The translations under genes were made by a program, and so were the position numbers. The notes under the pieces were generated by a model. It was not told where the DNA came from, did no database searches, and worked only from the letters and a program-made list of their open reading frames with translations. Of a stretch of DNA of 42,743 bases, positions 2,310 through 39,635 are shown in pieces (the first letter of the stretch is position 1; each line of letters opens with the position of its first letter). This DNA comes from Escherichia phage vB_EcoM-606R2. The stretch lies in sequence record ON470579.1, one strand, 5' to 3'.

Positions 2310-2357
2310 ATGGCGCTGTTAATCACTAAAAAATGCATCAATTGTGATATGTGTGAA
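2310..2357 (+). pseudogene. yfhL: 5' fragment of ferredoxin-like gene yfhL, interrupted by prophage insertion
   Basis: ATG at 2310 encodes MALLITKKCINCDMCE, the recalled N-terminus of the 4Fe-4S ferredoxin YfhL. The frame then diverges into AT-rich sequence and stops after two more codons. Confidence 0.65.
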
Positions 2358-2564: not shown

Positions 2565-2831
2565 ATGCGCAGAAAAGAATCAAACGTTAGCAGTTTGCCG
2601 GAACTCACCAATTTTGAGGTAAGCTATTCCCTAGTTACCAATGAAGTTTACTTGTCTGCATCCTTCACTGATAACATGGCCTGTATACCAAACTGGCCCT
2701 TACAAGAATTTCCGGATCAACTAATATGCATTTCTCGAGCAAAAGCTATTGCCCTAATCGAAGAGCTCCAGAAGACCATCGACTATATGGACGCAGGAAT
2801 CGATCGACAATCAGGTAGCCTGCTCCAGTAG
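2565..2831 (+). CDS. hypothetical protein, AT-rich terminal cargo
   Basis: 88-aa ORF in an AT-rich region with a weak ribosome-binding site; no recognisable motif. Confidence 0.35.
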   Translation: MRRKESNVSSLPELTNFEVSYSLVTNEVYLSASFTDNMACIPNWPLQEFPDQLICISRAKAIALIEELQKTIDYMDAGIDRQSGSLLQ

Positions 2832-2964
2832 CTGGCGAGTTTTATACTCGTTCCCTGCAACAATGGGCTTTTGGTAAGGCACTCACAAATAAGGAATTCG
2901 TTAAGGCTTTTGTTCTGGAGACTCTGAAAGATACAAGGAATCAGTTGATGGCTGGTTTGATCAT

Positions 2965-3005
2965 ACTAATTAATATATTGTCAAACTCACAATATATTAA
3001 TTAGT
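2965..3005. repeat. perfect 16-bp inverted repeat (ACTAATTAATATATTG / CAATATATTAATTAGT) with 9-bp spacer
   Basis: Read directly from the sequence; lies between the 88-aa and 281-aa cargo ORFs. Candidate operator or AT-rich terminator hairpin. Confidence 0.8.
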
Positions 3006-3132
3006 GGTAGAACATAAAACCGAGTTCTTGACTTTCAATAGCTATTATATGCGATCAACAACCTTAACCATCTCCTTATATTTTATGAGATACTCAAACA
3101 ATTTAAATTTATGAGCAAAGGAAAATAATAAA

Positions 3133-3978
3133 GTGAATAAAAATCCCTGGGATATTCCAGCATGGCACGCTCTGGGCCGAGAAGCATCTTTAGTTACACA
3201 GCTCATTGGTTCTGGGGCAACAGCCATAGGTAAAGCCAATTATGCAGACAAAATAGGTGAATATTACACAGCATTTTTTGGGCTTTCTGTAGGTTTTGAG
3301 AGACTTGCTAAACTAATACTTGTTGCACACTATGCCATTGAACACAAAGGGAAAATGCCTGATGAGAATATTGTAAGAAAATTTGGACATAAGCTCATTG
3401 AATTAACCAACGAGGTTGATAGTATTTCTAAAAAAATGCAACTATCTCTGAGATATTCACGTCCTACACATAAAATTACCTACAAAATACTTGAATGTTT
3501 AGATTCCTTTGCTGATGCCCGACGGGGACGTTACGCAAATTTCTCCTCATTAAGCAGCCCCAATTTAACCAATAATGAACCTATTAATAAATGGTGGGGA
3601 GAAGTAGCCGAGAGTATCCTTGAAAAACATTATTATTATACAGTTGAACAAAGACGTGTTGAAGAAAATGCTAGGTTTATCAATGCCACTCTTTCACCGT
3701 ATACAACGGTCATGTATATGAATGAAAGTACCAACATTATGCAAGACCTTATATCAGCCTCCATCCGTACTGGACAAAATACCATTGTTCAAAAGTGGGG
3801 AAGATTCTATTCTCTTAGCATCGCTCGTTGGCTTGCCACAGTATTAGCAGAACTGTCTGATATAGCTTCTCATAAATATGGAATAATTAGTTTTTATGGC
3901 CTTAGTGAACATTGTTGCAGTTATATAGTTGAAGATAGTTTTTTAAAAAACAGAAAAATATGGCCACTTCGCCAATAG
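3133..3978 (+). CDS. hypothetical protein, AT-rich accessory gene at the prophage terminus
   Basis: 281-aa ORF with a GTG start 11 nt after AAGGA. Its composition is strongly AT-rich compared with the phage core. It sits next to the truncated invertase. Confidence 0.6.
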   Translation: MNKNPWDIPAWHALGREASLVTQLIGSGATAIGKANYADKIGEYYTAFFGLSVGFERLAKLILVAHYAIEHKGKMPDENIVRKFGHKLIELTNEVDSISKKMQLSLRYSRPTHKITYKILECLDSFADARRGRYANFSSLSSPNLTNNEPINKWWGEVAESILEKHYYYTVEQRRVEENARFINATLSPYTTVMYMNESTNIMQDLISASIRTGQNTIVQKWGRFYSLSIARWLATVLAELSDIASHKYGIISFYGLSEHCCSYIVEDSFLKNRKIWPLRQ

Positions 3979-3982
3979 TTAA

Positions 3983-4333
3983 CTAGAAAATCTGCATAAG
4001 GGGGAGAAATCCCCCACCTGTAATAACATAACTACTAAAATTAACACCTTGTTCGCACAACTCCTCCACCAGCACGACAAGATGCCGCACACTGCGCCCC
4101 AGCCGATCCAGCTTCCAGACAACCAGAGTGTCACCTGCCGATAATGTCCTGAGCAGTTTTTTCAGTCCCGGCCTTTCGGACTTTGTACCGCTTATCTTGT
4201 CTTCAAAAAACAGCTCGCATCCTGCACAGTTCAGCGCATTACGTTGTAGATCTGTGTTCTGGTCATTTGTTGACACACGTACATAGCCAATAAGCATAGT
4301 GGATCCCTCTGACAAAAGCAGGAATGATGCCAT
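3983..4333 (-). pseudogene. Hin/Gin/Pin-family serine DNA invertase, 3'-truncated
   Basis: The N-terminus MLIGYVRVSTNDQNTDLQRNAL...DRLGRS carries the serine-recombinase catalytic motif. The ORF is only 116 aa and ends in unrelated residues; the HTH DNA-binding domain is missing. Confidence 0.75.
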
Positions 4334-4722
4334 TTGCTCGTTATTTCTGCATTTTCATAAACGTTGGTTTGGGAGAAGCGGCAAAACGGAATGTGGGCAC
4401 AGGAGATAATCAGATACCGGATATGGGAGCATTCGCTTCTGGTTCGGGATGGTTCAGGCTACCAGGTGGATATATTGTTCAGTTTGGCACTTTTTCAGGA
4501 AACACGACCCGCTTTATCAGTGGACACTTCCCTATACCATTCCCTAATCAGCCGATGATTTCAGTCAGTGTTATGTCTGATGCCGTTCAGTCAGACCCGT
4601 CGAATCCTGCCCCGCAGGTTTTGTCTGTAAATTTTGAACATATCAGTAATTCAGCGTGGCGTGTGGCAACCAGTGATATCTCACAGCAATACAGATTCAG
4701 TTATATTTCGATAGGACGGTAG
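4324..4722 (+). CDS. alternative tail-fibre C-terminal variable segment (silent orientation)
   Basis: The ORF shares the crossover-site residues GLGEAAK with the expressed tail-fibre gene and is followed by an assembly gene. It would be fused to the constant N-terminal part only after inversion. Confidence 0.5.
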   Translation: MMPFARYFCIFINVGLGEAAKRNVGTGDNQIPDMGAFASGSGWFRLPGGYIVQFGTFSGNTTRFISGHFPIPFPNQPMISVSVMSDAVQSDPSNPAPQVLSVNFEHISNSAWRVATSDISQQYRFSYISIGR

Positions 4723-4724
4723 AA

Positions 4725-5165
4725 ATGCAGAAATATATTTTCAGTGCCGATAAAAATGCGTTTTTCCCTGTGGAGCTTAAAATCGCTTATCAGGAATCCG
4801 GCGAATGGCCCGATGATGGAATCGAAATTGACGACACTGTTGCTGCCGAATTTATGAAGGAAGCACCAGAAGGAAAATACAGAGGTGTCATCGACGGAAT
4901 GCCTGCATGGATTGATATTCCACCGCCAACTCATGAGGAACAAATTGCCGCAGCCGAACTGAAAAAGCAGCAATTGATTAATCAGGTCAACGAATACATA
5001 AACAGTAAGCAATGGCCTGGTAAAGCGGCGATTGGTCGCCTGAAAGGTGAGGAACTGGTGCAATATAATTTGTGGCTGGATTATCTGGACGCACTGGAAC
5101 TGGTCGATACTTCCGGTGCGCCAGATATTGAATGGCCTACGCCTCCGGCAGTTCAGGCCAGATGA
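4725..5165 (+). CDS. tail fibre assembly protein (alternative copy)
   Basis: 146-aa ORF with the conserved Tfa-type C-terminus ending WPTPPA, immediately after the alternative fibre segment. Confidence 0.7.
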   Translation: MQKYIFSADKNAFFPVELKIAYQESGEWPDDGIEIDDTVAAEFMKEAPEGKYRGVIDGMPAWIDIPPPTHEEQIAAAELKKQQLINQVNEYINSKQWPGKAAIGRLKGEELVQYNLWLDYLDALELVDTSGAPDIEWPTPPAVQAR

Positions 5166-5733
5166 CATCCGGCGCGGTGCTGGTATCTGTTGCCGTCACC
5201 GCGTCAATGTAATCCAGCACAGCGTTAAGCCGGGTTGTTTCTGCCTGCGTCAGTTTCCGCCCGGCTTGTAATTTCAGCTGAATCAGACTAATGGAAGCCA
5301 TTGCTGCATCAATCAGTGACTGGCGCTGTGCTTCTGACGCGTCTACTGCGGCGCTATGCTGTGCCTCGGTATCCGTCACCCATTTCTCACCATCCCATTT
5401 ATCGTATGGCGTTAACGGTGAAAGCGTGACATAACCATCTTTGATGGCACCGATATAATCCACTGTAACAGCTGCGCCATTTTCGATTGAGTAAACAGTC
5501 TCATTGCGATGGTCCTCTTCATGGCTCCATCCCTTACCTGTAAATACAGCCACTTTTCCCGGAATGTTTTCGCCAGGGTTAATTCCAGTGGAACAGGCGG
5601 GCATACTTACGCCAGTATTAATATATTCATCAGACCAGCCCGTATACTCAGATGTTTCAGCATCATAATAAAAACAACGCATATCGCCCGGCACTGTAGC
5701 CAGTCCATTTTCATCAAAAATTGGGGTCATCAT
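5137..5733 (-). CDS. tail fibre assembly protein
   Basis: 198-aa ORF with a Tfa-like C-terminus ending IWPELPEA, downstream of the expressed tail-fibre gene. Confidence 0.7.
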
Positions 5734-6542
5734 TTAGCCCTCACCAGAAAGTTAAATGCAATATTTCGCGGTCTGACGGCAACAAAATTCACACCATCAC
5801 CCACAGAGTTACTGGTGAAATTAAATCGTGAAAATCCTGGCTGATTTCCGGCGATACCATCATGAAAATTAATTGTGTGGCCCGCACCATCGCCTATATT
5901 CCCGGCAAACTGAGAAAAGTTTGTAGCTGCCTGCCAGCTTAATAATTCGCGACCACCGTCTGCACCTCGCCCGTCATCCCAGATACGAATGAAATCACCG
6001 CGGGCTTCAGGTAATACCAGCGAAGGAAACACTTTCGCCAGCACAGGGTAATCAGAGGCAGAAAATTTCGCCCCGTTAAACTTCAAAAACACCATACCGG
6101 ACCAGCTGTCGATGACAGAATTTGGCATTGCAGCGGACGGCCAGAAGAACGGAACGCCAATAGCTGGGGCACCTTCTCCCAAACCAAGGTTTTCGAGAGC
6201 TGTTTTCACCGTGCCGTCCGATTTGATATCGCCAAACGGATTCTTGCGGCTCAGGTATTCAACAGCAAACCCCGATCCCAGCAATTCAACAAAACCGGGC
6301 AGATCACCATTATCAAGCACATCCCGTTGCGTTTTATCACTTACAAACTGGGCCAGAGCTGCAGCAATAAAGCTGGCCTGCCGAATAACCTTATTGACTT
6401 GCGCACTGGAGGCTTTCCCTGCTGTAAATCCAGATAAAAGCGCGGGCAACGCTTCCCATTCCTCCTGCGATATAACATTGGCATTTCGATCCGTTGCAAA
6501 CGCTTTAAAGTCATTTTTCGCCATCAGAGTAATACTCCCCAT
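5730..6542 (-). CDS. tail fibre protein (constant N-terminus plus variable C-terminus)
   Basis: 270-aa ORF at the end of the baseplate operon; it contains the crossover site and is followed by an assembly gene. Confidence 0.7.
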
Positions 6543-7204: not shown

Positions 7205-8400
7205 GACTCCACCGTTATAACGATATTTTTCGGGGTACAGGACGCAGATTCGTTGTATCTGATATCAATGTTTGATGACGACAAAGCCCCCGGGGATTTC
7301 CCAATCGTCAGTTCCTGAATATCGTAATAGCGTGCATTCCCGCCACTCACCACGCCAAGATTCGCCGGTGAGTAAATGCGACTTAAAAGGACCGAATCAC
7401 CAATCATCAGACTATTGATATAGTCGGAAATAGCCTGCTGGATCTGCTGCCCTATCTGTGAGGTATAACCCGTAAAAACTTTTAATTTAATCAGGGCATA
7501 AACAGGCACATCACTGGAACGCGAGAATTTGATTACATGGGGATTGCCGTATTTATCCGGAACCGTAACGGATGTTGTACCGTGAGTGGCTGTCCCCTGG
7601 CCTTTATTCCCTCTGATAGCCTGAGCAATATCCGTTACATCACCGCCATCCACAATTACAGCAACAGAGTGTGGCGGTAACCCGTTACCGTCCTCCGAAC
7701 CAGTATCGTTTTCATAGAGTTTGTGGCGGGTTACACCGGTAACATTAGAAACAGCACCATCCAGTGCTTCAAATGGGGTTATTGATGGCAACGCAACACT
7801 TTGCGACTGGCGGATACGTAACTCAGCGTCAGTTTCTGCCGGAGTGCCCACAGTGGCTGCAGCAGGATTGGTTACCGAAACCCAGCCACGGGTTGGCGTA
7901 TTAATTTCAGTGATAGTTCCAGCCAGCGCCGCCACTGCACCACTGACGGAACATGTTGCGGTCACCATCACTGTACCATCCACGCCTACCACCACTGAAG
8001 CAGGCAAACGCCATATCACATTATTACTGTCTTTCACGCTGCCATTAATGATGGTTGTTCCGGCAGTTCCTGTAAGAAGCAAATCAACCGTAGAGTTCGT
8101 CGCGCCTTTACGTGAAATACCATTTATTTTCACGTTACAGGTCAGTGCAGCCCCATAGCCGGTTGCCGGTGAAAAACAGTTGTAGACAGTTATCGCAGTA
8201 TTATTGGCATCATGAATCGCCAGCGCCATCAGAGCCACCATCTGGCCGTCTTTGCTGTCCGGTTCGAGGTAGGCATCACTGCCATAAATCTGCTGAAAAT
8301 AGCTAATCAGGGTGCTGAGTATCGTCTGATAATCAGGCGCACTGATCCCCTCCGCGGTTACCTTTGCAGATAAACCGAGAGAATCAAGGTTCAGAGCCAT
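7201..8400 (-). CDS. baseplate J-like protein
   Basis: 399-aa ORF in the conserved baseplate order W-J-I-fibre. Confidence 0.6.
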   Translation of the reverse strand: MALNLDSLGLSAKVTAEGISAPDYQTILSTLISYFQQIYGSDAYLEPDSKDGQMVALMALAIHDANNTAITVYNCFSPATGYGAALTCNVKINGISRKGATNSTVDLLLTGTAGTTIINGSVKDSNNVIWRLPASVVVGVDGTVMVTATCSVSGAVAALAGTITEINTPTRGWVSVTNPAAATVGTPAETDAELRIRQSQSVALPSITPFEALDGAVSNVTGVTRHKLYENDTGSEDGNGLPPHSVAVIVDGGDVTDIAQAIRGNKGQGTATHGTTSVTVPDKYGNPHVIKFSRSSDVPVYALIKLKVFTGYTSQIGQQIQQAISDYINSLMIGDSVLLSRIYSPANLGVVSGGNARYYDIQELTIGKSPGALSSSNIDIRYNESASCTPKNIVITVES

Positions 8401-8753: not shown

Positions 8754-9505
8754 CAGTTTACCCCGTCGGTACTGCTTCCACCGCGCTGAACACCACCATG
8801 AGTGTGCGTATCATCGATTGGCTTGCCGTTAGCCTTCACGCTCCCCAAAAACTCAACAGCACCAGTGATTTTTGAAGCCACACCAGAAACCACAGACCCC
8901 ACCATGCCCCCCATCCAGGTTAACAGGCCATGAATGGTTACTTTCTCAGAAAAATCAGCCAGGGGGGCAACCACATCAAGCCCCCCCGGAGCGACAATTT
9001 TAATTTTCCTGGTATCAGGATTAAGCTCAAAATAGGTGCTGCCGTCGTCACTACGCAACTGTGTGGCACTGGTATTAATACCGCTAATCTTCCTAGCCTG
9101 CGACTGGGGACCGACAATACAAAACGCATCCGATAAATCATGCATTCTGTCATCAACCGTCTCCTGTATCCCGCCGCTCTGCCACCAGAAATCAATACAA
9201 CGATCGGCAAAAACGACAAGACACTCATCCCCAGCTTTTACCGGAAAAGTCAACGTACAGCCTCCGCCGCGCGGGAATACCACTGGCACATCCACCAGCA
9301 ATGGGTAATTTTTGGTAATGCGGTTACCGTCGTTATCCTTTTCAACTGACCGGATAGCTGGCTGCACAACCGCCGTCACCGCGTCAGGATCGAATGACTG
9401 AATAATGCCAGGCAAGGCGACACGGATCTGGTTCTTTGTTGTTTCCCGTTCAGATTTAAATGTTTCGGCAAGATCGCCACTGCGGGTCTGGTCAGTTACT
9501 GCCAT
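8753..9505 (-). CDS. baseplate spike / assembly protein V-like
   Basis: 250-aa ORF with a C-terminal HTHGG-type apex motif, in the position expected for a gpV-like protein. Confidence 0.55.
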   Translation of the reverse strand: MAVTDQTRSGDLAETFKSERETTKNQIRVALPGIIQSFDPDAVTAVVQPAIRSVEKDNDGNRITKNYPLLVDVPVVFPRGGGCTLTFPVKAGDECLVVFADRCIDFWWQSGGIQETVDDRMHDLSDAFCIVGPQSQARKISGINTSATQLRSDDGSTYFELNPDTRKIKIVAPGGLDVVAPLADFSEKVTIHGLLTWMGGMVGSVVSGVASKITGAVEFLGSVKANGKPIDDTHTHGGVQRGGSSTDGVN

Positions 9506-10078: not shown

Positions 10079-10410
10079 TTGCTGCTCACTTTTTTACACG
10101 GGAAAGATCCAATGATTTTCGGCGCGTCCATGCTGTTCTGCAGCAGCTGGACGTTCAGGAAAGCTTTTCCGTTACGTTTCACAAACTCAAAGCCGTAATT
10201 GTTACCATCACGGGAAGGCATCAGGCCCATGTCCATTTTCATGTTTGAATAGTCACCATCTTTTCCCAGAAATTTTATCTTCTGTGATGTGACAGTTTCA
10301 CCGTTAATAACAGTCATTCCGTCACCGGTCATCGTGTAGTTGCCGCACTGAATTGCAGCCATCGCCGGAGCAGTAACCATCATAACTAACGCCAAACATA
10401 ACCGTTTCAT
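10075..10410 (-). CDS. secreted/periplasmic hypothetical protein
   Basis: 111-aa ORF with a typical N-terminal signal peptide (MKRLCLALVMMVTAPAMA). Its stop overlaps the start of the HEPN-like ORF. Confidence 0.55.
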   Translation of the reverse strand: MKRLCLALVMMVTAPAMAAIQCGNYTMTGDGMTVINGETVTSQKIKFLGKDGDYSNMKMDMGLMPSRDGNNYGFEFVKRNGKAFLNVQLLQNSMDAPKIIGSFPCKKVSSK

Positions 10411-10829
10411 TAAAGCCCTCTTTCCCTCGCTGATGAGGAAACAAGATCCGCCGCGCCACGCGCTTCACACATCATATCCATGTACCACGCCTGGCCCCTT
10501 GTGTCGCCAGTGTACATAATCCCGCGCACAATATAAACGCCATCCGTTGCGATGCTGGCAGGCTGCGATGTGGTGCCGCTGAGCGTGATATTTCCGTCCG
10601 TGTTCTGGTCGGTGATCTGACCACCAGCCATCGCAATATCGTTGTTCGACAACGCGGTACGATAGACGGAAGCCTGATCCAGCTGAATGAGCCCGTTAAC
10701 CCGGATGTTCGGATTAATAAGCGCGCGGACGTTTACGCCGTTACCGATAGTCTGCTGCGGCATTCCAATAAGCCCGGTAGCGCTGTTGAGCACAATCGCT
10801 TCGTGAACATATTCGTTATTCACCACCAT
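10410..10829 (-). CDS. tail/baseplate protein
   Basis: 139-aa ORF within the tail operon; call rests on position only. Confidence 0.45.
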   Translation of the reverse strand: MVVNNEYVHEAIVLNSATGLIGMPQQTIGNGVNVRALINPNIRVNGLIQLDQASVYRTALSNNDIAMAGGQITDQNTDGNITLSGTTSQPASIATDGVYIVRGIMYTGDTRGQAWYMDMMCEARGAADLVSSSARERGL

Positions 10830-10835
10830 CTGGCG

Positions 10836-11474
10836 CTAACCGTCCACGAATTGCCATGTTGCGCCACATTGTCCGGCTACGTTATCCATTAGATGCCGCG
10901 TCATGCCAAAGAGTACCCGCCCCCGGGGGAATACAGTAGCAGGCATTTCAGGCGTCAGGCCTTCGGTCGCGCCTTTGGCTTCGAAGTCTTTCATCAGCGC
11001 ACGGTTCACATCAGCGACCGTGTAACCGGCAGCCAGCGTCTGTGAGGTTATACTGGTAGCAAAAGCCAGATCAGTATCTGCTGCCTGAATCAGGACGTAG
11101 GTATCAACCGGACTGTCTTTTCCTGTGACCGAGTAGCGAATTTCACCGCTGAAAATCAGTCCGTAGTTGCGGCCATCTCTCTGGCCCACGTCCGCCGCGT
11201 CAACTTCCCGCACGGTCCCTACGTCGCTTGCTGACACCTCCGGCGCGATACCGTCGTAACCGGCAATCAGACGCACTTTCGAAAACTCCTGCCCGGTAAT
11301 TCGGTTCACAGTATCTGCCGAGAGGTTATAAATTTTGATAGTCCCTACCCGGGACGCGCTGCTGATGTTGAACCAGTCGATCGTAAAGGTGACTTTGAAA
11401 TCACTTAGCTCAATTCCCTGACCGTTCCCGTCCACAAGCTGCAGCTCGAAATGTCTCATCCAGTTCTGTGACAT
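10836..11474 (-). CDS. tail/baseplate protein (hub-like position)
   Basis: 212-aa ORF within the tail operon; call rests on position only. Confidence 0.45.
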   Translation of the reverse strand: MSQNWMRHFELQLVDGNGQGIELSDFKVTFTIDWFNISSASRVGTIKIYNLSADTVNRITGQEFSKVRLIAGYDGIAPEVSASDVGTVREVDAADVGQRDGRNYGLIFSGEIRYSVTGKDSPVDTYVLIQAADTDLAFATSITSQTLAAGYTVADVNRALMKDFEAKGATEGLTPEMPATVFPRGRVLFGMTRHLMDNVAGQCGATWQFVDG

Positions 11475-38873: not shown

Positions 38874-39635
38874 ATGCAGGAACTAACTGAAATGCCGATC
38901 AACTATCCATACCCGAGAGAATCTTTTCCTGACTTTTTGAGGGAGTGTGGGTTCACCAATTTTTCCCACGAACAGCGTGAGACTTATGACTGCTATCGTT
39001 TAACGAATGGCGTAATTGTTAACCTTTACACCACCCGGACCATTCAGTTTCAAGGGAACCCTCAAGAACGTCCCAATGTTGAAACTGCAATAATGTCCCA
39101 TTTAGGAACGCCCCCCACGGCAACACCACTAGCCGTAGAACAGCCATCTGAGCTTCCCAAAAAGATATTCATTGTTCACGGCCATGACCATACTGCAAAG
39201 GAACAACTTGAGCTAATCCTTCATAAACTTGGATTACCAGACCATTTCATTTTGCAGAATACGGGAGGGACTGGACTCACCATTATTGAAGAGCTTGAAC
39301 GTGAAATTGGGCAAGGACAAACTGCTACTCGTTTCGGGATTGTTCTTTTGACACCTGATGATATGGGATACTCAAAGCGCGCCGGTGAAGCAGAAATCCA
39401 ACCCCGCGCAAGACAGAACGTTGTACTCGAGATGGGTATGCTTCTTTCGTCCTTAGGGCGCAGCAATGTAGCAATCCTTCAGAAACAGCACCTAGAACAG
39501 CCTTCTGATGCTAACGGGATTTTGTATCTGAATTTCAACGACCATGTACGTGAAACAGTTCCTCGTCTAGTGCAACGGTTACAAAATTCTGGTTTCGAAT
39601 TTACACAAGCTCAAATAGCTAACGCTTCCTCGTAA
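38874..39635 (+). CDS. TIR-like domain protein (COG4271 / Cap12-type TIR-like fold) with an unknown N-terminal domain
   Basis: The C-terminal region has the pattern KIFIVHGHD ... FGIVLLTPDD ... RARQNVVLEMGMLL ... PSD, recalled as typical of the TIR-like nucleotide-binding family. Not confirmed by search. Confidence 0.55.
   Translation: MQELTEMPINYPYPRESFPDFLRECGFTNFSHEQRETYDCYRLTNGVIVNLYTTRTIQFQGNPQERPNVETAIMSHLGTPPTATPLAVEQPSELPKKIFIVHGHDHTAKEQLELILHKLGLPDHFILQNTGGTGLTIIEELEREIGQGQTATRFGIVLLTPDDMGYSKRAGEAEIQPRARQNVVLEMGMLLSSLGRSNVAILQKQHLEQPSDANGILYLNFNDHVRETVPRLVQRLQNSGFEFTQAQIANASS

Follow-up and report, generated by a model that had tools for sequence, protein, structure and literature searches.

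A candidate single-gene HEPN-like defence effector carried as exchangeable cargo at the end of a SEN34-type Escherichia coli prophage

Introduction

PrrC and RloC are latent anticodon nucleases that are embedded in type I restriction-modification loci. AbiV of lactococci is a HEPN ribonuclease (RNase), and HepS of the Salmonella prophage Gifsy-1 is a single HEPN protein that provides defence from within a prophage. Precedents exist for accessory slots at prophage ends, for restriction-embedded abortive infection (Abi) genes and for HEPN effectors in prophages. In this study we analyzed a 42,743-nucleotide (nt) stretch of DNA, record ON470579.1 of Escherichia phage vB_EcoM-606R2, which we call the window and in whose positions the coordinates are given. 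Our subject is a gene of 281 codons carried as cargo at one end of the prophage in this window, which we consider a good candidate for a new single-gene phage-defence protein, a solid lead rather than a surprise to the specialist. What is new here is a large unnamed family that, as judged for the query and 104 relatives, is absent from Pfam and from PADLOC v2.0.0 and that has an atypical putative active site.

Location inside a type I restriction operon is known to predict a role in defence (Payne et al. 2024, 10.1101/2024.01.29.577857), and TgvAB serves as an experimental example of embedding that predicted defence (PMC11411939). In phage P2 and its relatives, the interval between gpA and the portal gene is a defence hotspot as defined by Rousset et al. 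2022 (PMC9122126), and Z/fun is a named P2 defence locus (PMC13586616).

Results

An exchangeable cassette at the prophage end

A first-pass annotation of this DNA had placed two open reading frames (ORFs), of 88 and 281 codons, between the host junction and a truncated invertase gene, where both are found as described (Table 1), and had taken the pair to be AT-rich cargo in a variable accessory slot. The longer gene is indeed strongly AT-rich, with a GC content of 37.2% overall and 27% at third codon positions. The shorter ORF does not belong with it. Its GC content is 43.8%, it lies outside the exchanged segment, and it is conserved at ~95% nucleotide identity in prophages that carry a different cargo. 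In phage SEN34 its homologue, SEN34_31, adjoins the integrase and the phage attachment site attP. Because this ORF is kept beside different cargos and has a homologue in SEN34, it is a conserved backbone gene of this prophage type, and the variable slot lies behind it.

The borders of the slot were defined by pairwise alignment with prophages that carry an unrelated 215-residue cargo. Homology with one of these (L016) ends at 2846 and restarts at 4037, and the corresponding breakpoints with a second (L017) are 2846 and 4058. The flanks are common to related prophages at 87-95% identity (95% with L016). The cassette between them contains an inverted repeat, a 286-bp leader, the 281-codon gene and a junction inside the invertase gene pin, and its GC content of 36.1% compares with 51.0% in the host flank and 49.7% in the remaining prophage.

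The junction-proximal 581 bp, which include the 88-codon ORF, were found in 125 of 5,426 complete E. coli genomes and adjoin yfhH in all eight that were inspected. The 281-codon gene occurs in 44 of the 5,426, always as a single copy and at least 98.6% identical, and adjoins the truncated pin in every copy inspected (the window and four genomes). The gene is thus not invariant at this position, with only 44 of the 125 genomes carrying it. In 83 genomes the 581-bp match is at 90-95% identity and, among the matches listed at that identity, ends just past the 88-codon ORF; two of these genomes were inspected, and in both the slot holds the 215-residue gene (WP_001288820.1) and a full-length pinE, frameshifted in one. 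Another genome has an IS5-family element instead of the cassette, with the truncated pin still in place. The cassette and truncated pin also occur together in prophages with differing tail-fibre or baseplate genes. In the Salmonella phage SEN34, a small ORF and an acyltransferase-3 gene lie between the homologue of the 88-codon ORF and the tail-fibre genes. At least four kinds of content are therefore seen in the slot: the 281-codon gene, the 215-residue gene and IS5 in E. coli, and the acyltransferase in SEN34.

The position is fixed between conserved backbone genes, the alternative cargos are unrelated to each other, and the cargo deviates in base composition from the rest of the prophage (36.1% against 49.7% GC). 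We are highly confident that the cassette is swappable cargo in a prophage-end accessory slot, as the first-pass annotation had proposed. Its statement on prophage e14 was also accurate: in E. coli K-12 the order is stfE, pinE, mcrA, the prophage end and icdC, and the slot in the window is topologically the slot of e14 between pinE and the prophage end.

The 215-residue alternative cargo (L016, 6513-7160) belongs to an uncharacterised family with 216 matches, which are all from Enterobacterales among those listed, and has no Pfam or PADLOC match. In Enterobacter, a gene of this family lies in a small islet and adjoins a HigB/HigA toxin-antitoxin pair.

The contents of the slot bear on one alternative to a defence role. 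Acyltransferase-3 is a classic lysogenic-conversion gene, and the O-antigen-type acyltransferase in the SEN34 slot, along with a 215-residue cargo that is equally uncharacterised, would suit a gene that alters host physiology or surface, or that benefits the host without acting on an infecting phage. We judge this to be highly unlikely for the 281-residue protein, which is modelled as a soluble helical protein and matches no membrane-protein or enzyme family. Its spread across phyla and its embedding in restriction operons, described below, are also hard to square with an enteric-specific role in surface or physiology.

A widespread family of uniform length

The 281-residue protein has no match in Pfam (E ≤ 1), PADLOC, PHROGs or NCBIfam, and a literature search by accession and by phage name found nothing. 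The earlier statement that it is not McrA-like stands, by the absence of any HNH match in Pfam, NCBIfam and PADLOC, and by the four database results above it fits no phage structural or regulatory family. A structural or regulatory role in the phage was considered and set aside, as PHROGs gave no match and phage genomes outside this prophage lack the gene. Of 50,697 phage records, just the two prophage-derived records of this same element contain it.

A word-indexed search returned 486 matches, all of ~280 residues, annotated as hypothetical and 56-74% identical, which span Serratia, Chromohalobacter, Vibrio, Methylocella and Acidibrevibacterium. An exhaustive profile search gave 958 representatives at 50% identity (E ≤ 1e-3), of which 183 matched at E ≤ 1e-30, with a uniform length of ~275 residues. 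Scanning one genome per species with the close alignment identified 60 loci in Gamma- and Alphaproteobacteria, Mycobacterium paraense (52% identity), Promicromonospora, Nitrospinota, Gemmatimonadota (Longimicrobiaceae), Planctomycetota (Tepidisphaerales) and Acidobacteriota. The high identity across phyla combined with patchy presence argues for horizontal mobility.

Genomic contexts of the relatives

Relatives of the gene are found at both P2 sites described above. In P2-like prophages of Morganella the relative lies between tail-fibre assembly and sheath genes, a position that we take to be the Z/fun locus on the P2 map. In those of Serratia marcescens it lies between gpA and the portal gene, adjoined by a PvuII restriction system in one strain. 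Klebsiella variicola carries a relative at a prophage end, next to umuDC-like and tail genes, and in Chromohalobacter a relative is ~3.6 kb from a Thoeris-type pair of SIR2 and ThsB-TIR genes. A solitary relative in Acidibrevibacterium (L013/L014) lies directly downstream of a putative tRNA gene, read by eye, and direct repeats of ~70 bp (about 7890-7960 and 9020-9090) flank a ~1.1-kb insert that holds this gene alone. This minimal insert hints at how the gene moves.

In 11 of the 60 species loci, the relative (X) is embedded in a type I restriction operon with the order hsdM-hsdS-X-hsdR on one strand, Novosphingobium (L063) and Aurantiacibacter (L059) being examples. Where the immediate neighbour of X is hsdS or hsdR, the two genes are 8-18 nt apart or overlap by 10 nt. 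Five of these 11 loci contain further ORFs between hsdS and hsdR; three are accessory and unrelated to each other, namely a TIR-like gene (L052) and an Abi_C-like gene (L082), both by motif inspection, and one that was not placed, and another resembles an hsdS fragment. A Fic/RhuM gene was identified by Pfam in the operon of L024. The restriction-linked total is 13 independent loci, 11 between hsdS and hsdR and two after hsdR. In an integrase-bounded island of Enterobacter and Klebsiella, the relative is 86 nt past hsdM-hsdS-hsdR with Vsr, HNH and DUF4917 genes alongside, and in Pseudidiomarina it is 63 nt after hsdR with a Fic/RhuM gene embedded in the same operon. Together, homologues in defence hotspots and in type I restriction operons give strong contextual support, by inference, to the idea of defence.

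The restriction-linked loci could also be read in another way, with the protein assisting or regulating restriction-modification or DNA/RNA metabolism, for instance as an HsdR modulator or a restriction-alleviation or anti-restriction factor, and serving the prophage itself. The tight operonic placement at 13 independent loci would be consistent with this, as would the missing canonical catalytic motif. Domains that bind nucleotides or ligands without catalysis also occur among those with the HEPN fold. We nevertheless consider such a role quite unlikely. A restriction system adjoins none of the 44 E. coli copies and is missing next to approximately 80% of the species loci, and residence in the P2 hotspot indicates autonomous function. 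The invariant polar set (Glu, Arg, Lys, His, Arg, Tyr and Asn) resembles an active site, and the co-embedded genes are of defence type, as in the TIR-like, Abi_C-like and Fic/RhuM genes of L052, L082 and L024.

At the 48 non-restriction loci the neighbouring genes are a mixed set, with scattered integrases and YoeB, Abi_C and AbiEii-like genes. A conserved partner gene was looked for among 142 neighbours of these loci and rejected, as none recurs; the gene therefore appears self-sufficient. Distant relatives of 273 residues (~33% identity over residues 17-175) are carried on 134 plasmids, of which 116 are conjugative. In two IncX1-type plasmids that were inspected (L093, 1847-2668, and L094, 3968-4789; IncX1/X3), the distant relative lies in an accessory region between a resolvase gene and the hns/hha/topB backbone genes.

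Predicted fold and putative active site

From an alignment of 40 sequences, AlphaFold2 produced a confident, all-helical model with a predicted local distance difference test score of 82 and a predicted template modelling score of 0.82. The main helices comprise residues 11-34, 41-70, 88-101, 114-127, 150-166, 171-187 and 206-248, and model confidence is low only at residues 135-147 and in the last dozen residues. The core resembles the up-and-down helical bundle of the HEPN fold, and the ANT(6) C-domain is among the fold matches. The N-terminal half, of ~130 residues, probably contains the HEPN-type helical bundle. A tandem-HEPN arrangement was tried and rejected, with an hhalign probability of 0.3% between the N- and C-terminal halves and no internal duplication.

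HEPN profiles do not recognise the query, which has no Pfam match at E ≤ 1. The conservation alignment contained 104 sequences, 26-48% identical to the query, and two of these relatives match HEPN_AbiV (best E 0.002). This is the lowest E among the Pfam families that match more than one relative, the sole other being HTH_36 at E 0.069, and gives the HEPN reading independent but weak support from sequence. We file the protein as one that works like a HEPN effector and not as a member of any HEPN family.

Glu56, Lys60, His86, Tyr134 and Trp154 are invariant in the 104 relatives, and Glu17, Gly28, Arg57, Arg133, Asn136, Pro150, Glu198, Arg232 and Asp268 are at least 90% conserved. This pattern fits an enzyme and not a structural protein. 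In the model, His86 lies at the N-terminus of helix 88-101. In the AbiV family, the most conserved feature is a Glu/Lys pair in the dimerisation helix, the catalytic His is 30 residues past this Glu, and many members depart from the canonical motif spacing (10.1101/2024.05.05.592566). His86 of the 281-residue protein is likewise 30 residues after the invariant Glu56/Lys60 pair begins, at Glu56. The parallel with AbiV is suggestive, and by this analogy His86 would correspond to the HEPN catalytic His. HEPN-type RNase chemistry is a tentative assignment, which we hold at a little under even confidence.

The leader and its inverted repeat

The first-pass annotation reported a perfect 16-bp palindrome between the two ORFs. 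The inverted repeat is real, but its arms are 17 nt long and are separated by a 7-nt spacer. It lies 128 nt upstream of the GTG start codon, and as RNA it has a folding energy of -19.8 kcal/mol (z = -5.1 against shuffled sequences). The arm sequence is expected 0.11 times by chance in the window, where there is no other exact copy. An operator, an insulating hairpin and a recombination scar are candidate roles. A conserved operator or antitoxin element was rejected, as the repeat is absent upstream of homologues elsewhere and has no second site in the window.

The GTG start itself, also proposed earlier, is supported by the Enterobacter and Serratia homologues, which share the AAGGAAAA-N-GTG arrangement with the same Shine-Dalgarno sequence ~10 nt upstream. 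No canonical intrinsic terminator was found for the cassette. In the window, a short GC hairpin follows the gene at 4000-4015. The Enterobacter island copy (L004, ~8880-8905) and the Serratia P2-prophage copy (L009, ~8875-8900) have in common a downstream hairpin of the GCTCACAAC-N-GTTGTGAGC type that is followed by a TGAGCTAATACA motif, and the hairpin of the window copy differs from it. Because homology between L004 and L009 reaches past the ORF, a common mobile cassette is suggested for these two.

The leader bears on a second alternative, in which the gene acts as a selfish module for stabilisation or addiction, toxin-like and making loss of its carrier element costly, and has no primary anti-phage role. 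In one variant it might be controlled, like a toxin-antitoxin pair of type III (AbiV/abiV2), by an RNA encoded in cis within the 286-bp leader, where the 17-bp hairpin lies. HEPN-like folds are typical of toxins, AbiV reportedly acts together with an antitoxin RNA (10.1101/2024.05.05.592566), and the strong upstream hairpin, the carriage of distant relatives by mainly conjugative plasmids, and the YoeB toxins, Abi_C and AbiEii-like genes among the neighbours are all in keeping with addiction. However, the leader and hairpin are not kept with the gene, which is 86 nt after hsdR in Enterobacter and only 8-16 nt after hsdS in the embedded copies. The leader also contains no tandem repeats, and no conserved small partner ORF was found. 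We consider addiction unlikely as the primary role, while noting that addiction and defence are not mutually exclusive.

The truncated invertase and the tail-fibre segment

The pin ORF is convergent with the 281-codon gene and is truncated, as the first-pass annotation had stated, its match covering only part of the Resolvase profile (Table 1). It consists of 87 Pin codons (4037-4297) followed by 17 unrelated codons read through from the cassette. The N-terminal two thirds of the catalytic domain remain, and the C-terminal part of that domain and the DNA-binding domain are missing; PGAP labels the gene partial. Because the DNA-binding domain is gone, acquisition of the cargo destroyed the invertase. 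A pair of crossover-type inverted repeats encloses the adjacent segment (4379-6172), which encodes an alternative gp53-like fibre tip and two tail-fibre assembly genes. With the resident invertase truncated, this host-range switch is locked as it stands unless an enzyme of the Pin/Gin type is supplied in trans. The swap of cargo has therefore come at a measurable cost to the phage, the loss of its tail-fibre invertase.

Host junction, prophage and other features of the window

The window is in essence the reverse complement of GenBank ON470588.1 ('Escherichia phage vB_EcoM-611R5'), a prophage-derived record that retains host genes. Positions 1-2357 are E. coli chromosome with tadA, pgpC/yfhB, yfhH and the start of yfhL, and yfhH adjoins yfhL in K-12 as well. 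In an ungapped comparison, K-12 yfhL shows 47 identities over 48 positions up to 2357 and none past it, which places the junction at ~2357/2358. From ~2358 onward the window holds a myovirus prophage of the SEN34/Brunovirus type integrated in yfhL. Its order rightward is a tail-fibre module with the invertible segment, baseplate, tail, head, lysis, Q, repressor and replication genes, and it continues past the right end of the window. The coordinates of the features are collected in Table 1.

Table 1. Features of the left prophage end, in window coordinates
Feature	Position	Strand	Description
yfhL 5' end, 48 nt	2310-2357	+	yfhL nt 1-48; host side of the left prophage junction
88-codon ORF	2565-2831	+	ATG start; phrog_17793 (E 5.8e-46)
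Exchangeable cassette, 1,190 bp	2847-4036		Bounded by homology breakpoints against prophages with the 215-residue cargo
Inverted repeat, 17-nt arms, 7-nt spacer	2965-3005 (arms 2965-2981, 2989-3005)		Arms 100% complementary
Shine-Dalgarno sequence AAGGA	3118-3122	+	10 nt before the GTG
281-codon gene, WP_001039127.1	3133-3978	+	GTG start; predicted all-alpha, HEPN-like; candidate single-gene defence/abortive-infection effector
Truncated pin invertase	3983-4297	-	Pfam Resolvase N-terminal domain (E 1.5e-28), profile positions 2-98 of 145
Left crossover-type inverted repeat, 20 nt	4359-4378		95% complementary to 6173-6192, 1,794 nt apart
Right crossover-type inverted repeat	6173-6192		Inside a tail-fibre gene

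Several further observations were made on the same DNA. The record ON470588.1 carries the title of a complete phage genome. It contains ~2.4 kb of host chromosome (tadA, pgpC, yfhH and the 5' end of yfhL) and ends within a helicase gene, before an integrase or the second attachment site is reached; it is a prophage region with imprecise limits and not a complete phage genome. About 40 nt inside the prophage end, at 2396-2419, the 12-mer AATGTGTTATTG is perfectly duplicated in tandem, and could be an arm-type recombinase site or a site related to integration host factor in the left attachment site. A gene of 253 codons (38874-39635, + strand) in the early/replication region, directly after a family-A DNA polymerase gene, encodes a CAP12/Pycsar-effector TIR domain (PF10137, E 2.9e-31) and may be a second defence-type or NAD-targeting cargo of the same prophage. 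The window and E. coli WP3-W18-ESBL-08 have 24.4 kb in common, over which just one base is different (10838, where the window has A for G). This base lies in a gene of 354 codons in the baseplate/tail region (10410-11474, - strand), annotated as hypothetical, where it changes Gln213 to an amber stop and divides the gene into ORFs of 212 and 139 codons. The window copy may be tail-defective through this stop, or the base may be a sequencing error.

Discussion

Taken together, the evidence leads us to consider a role in defence probable for the 281-residue protein. The fuller reading, that it is a stand-alone HEPN-like abortive-infection effector carried as prophage cargo, is one that we hold with about even confidence. 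In this model, the cassette would have been acquired horizontally into the slot between the backbone gene and the tail-fibre/invertase module, where it would have taken the place of another cargo gene and cost pin its 3' half. The encoded protein would be a self-contained and normally latent effector, most likely a metal-independent RNase, with an active site formed by His86 and the basic residue at position 82, Glu56/Arg57/Lys60 and Arg133/Tyr134/Asn136. A superinfecting phage would activate it, the infection would be aborted, and the lysogen population and its prophage would thereby be protected. The restriction-embedded versions, found in about a fifth of species, could form a second line of defence when restriction is evaded, as PrrC does, with failure of the restriction complex as the presumed trigger; the copy in the window would work alone.

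A number of results weigh against this model. A lone toxin without an antitoxin needs a mechanism of latency, and none is evident. The window copy has no hsd genes nearby, and the absence of an adjacent restriction system from all 44 E. coli copies and from the solitary ~80% of species loci counts here too; since these copies are unlinked to restriction, coupling of the PrrC kind cannot explain regulation in this prophage. The canonical HEPN motif Rx4-6H is absent. The spacing at His86 is x3, within [RK]-x-[YF]-G-H, the residue at -4 is R in 49 and K in 49 of the 104 sequences, and no other R...H pair at a spacing of 4-6 is conserved. Foldseek searches of the PDB and BFVD returned nothing below an E of 0.1, and profile searches of PDB sequences with the close (A1) and broad (A2) alignments gave chance coiled-coil matches only. 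Promoter-like hexamers upstream of the gene number 10, not above chance (6.8 ± 2.8 in shuffled sequences). Finally, PADLOC-DB v2.0.0 has no model for the family, and the 104 relatives give three isolated matches in it, at E > 0.003; the family is therefore not among the defence candidates of that release.

A more ambitious proposal, tentative and clearly below even confidence, is that the protein is the founding member of a widespread and hitherto unrecognised single-protein immune family of ~960 clusters (at 50% identity) in Proteobacteria, Actinobacteria, Acidobacteriota, Planctomycetota and others, with more distant members on conjugative plasmids such as those of the IncX1/X3 types. The family would have a non-canonical HEPN-like centre ([RK]x3H, E-R-x2-K and R-Y-x-N) and would serve as a restriction-embedded second line in some hosts and as free-standing prophage cargo in others. 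If so, the immune repertoire of bacteria would gain about a thousand sequence clusters that are at present unnamed and without a model in Pfam or PADLOC. The gene offers a compact test case, a single ORF that stands alone in prophages and is wired into type I restriction operons elsewhere. Two questions become testable with it: by what means a lone toxin-like protein is kept silent and perceives infection, and whether a HEPN-type bundle works with an [RK]x3H centre. The locus also records the swapping of cargo at a prophage end with borders at the level of the base pair.

Comparison with known systems

The likeness to PrrC and RloC is one of location, as relatives of the 281-residue protein lie between hsdS and hsdR in 11 of the 60 loci, where PrrC also lies. 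The protein is all-helical and has no N-terminal ABC/NTPase domain (no P-loop or ATPase match), shares no sequence similarity with PrrC, lacks the canonical motif and is unlinked to restriction in most copies. Relative to AbiV (PF18728; PDB 9bj5), it has 80 more residues and an extension of three helices at the C-terminus. The query does not match PF18728, and unlike AbiV it has no conserved partner RNA or gene, its leader and hairpin not being conserved. HepS (PDB 9oik) shares the prophage location and the single-protein form, but the two are unrelated in sequence, and HepS occupies another slot in another type of prophage.

The type of evidence is the same as for the candidates found through guilt by embedding (Payne et al. 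2024; the PDC models of PADLOC), which also combine embedded homologues with many non-embedded ones, the difference being that the present family is not represented in PADLOC-DB v2.0.0. With respect to the slot, the 281-codon gene is placed like mcrA of e14, between the invertase and the prophage end, and close homologues occupy both the old/tin (gpA-gpQ) and the Z/fun loci of P2-like prophages. The cargo itself is unrelated to McrA (no HNH), Old, Tin or Fun, and its arrival in this prophage destroyed the adjacent invertase.

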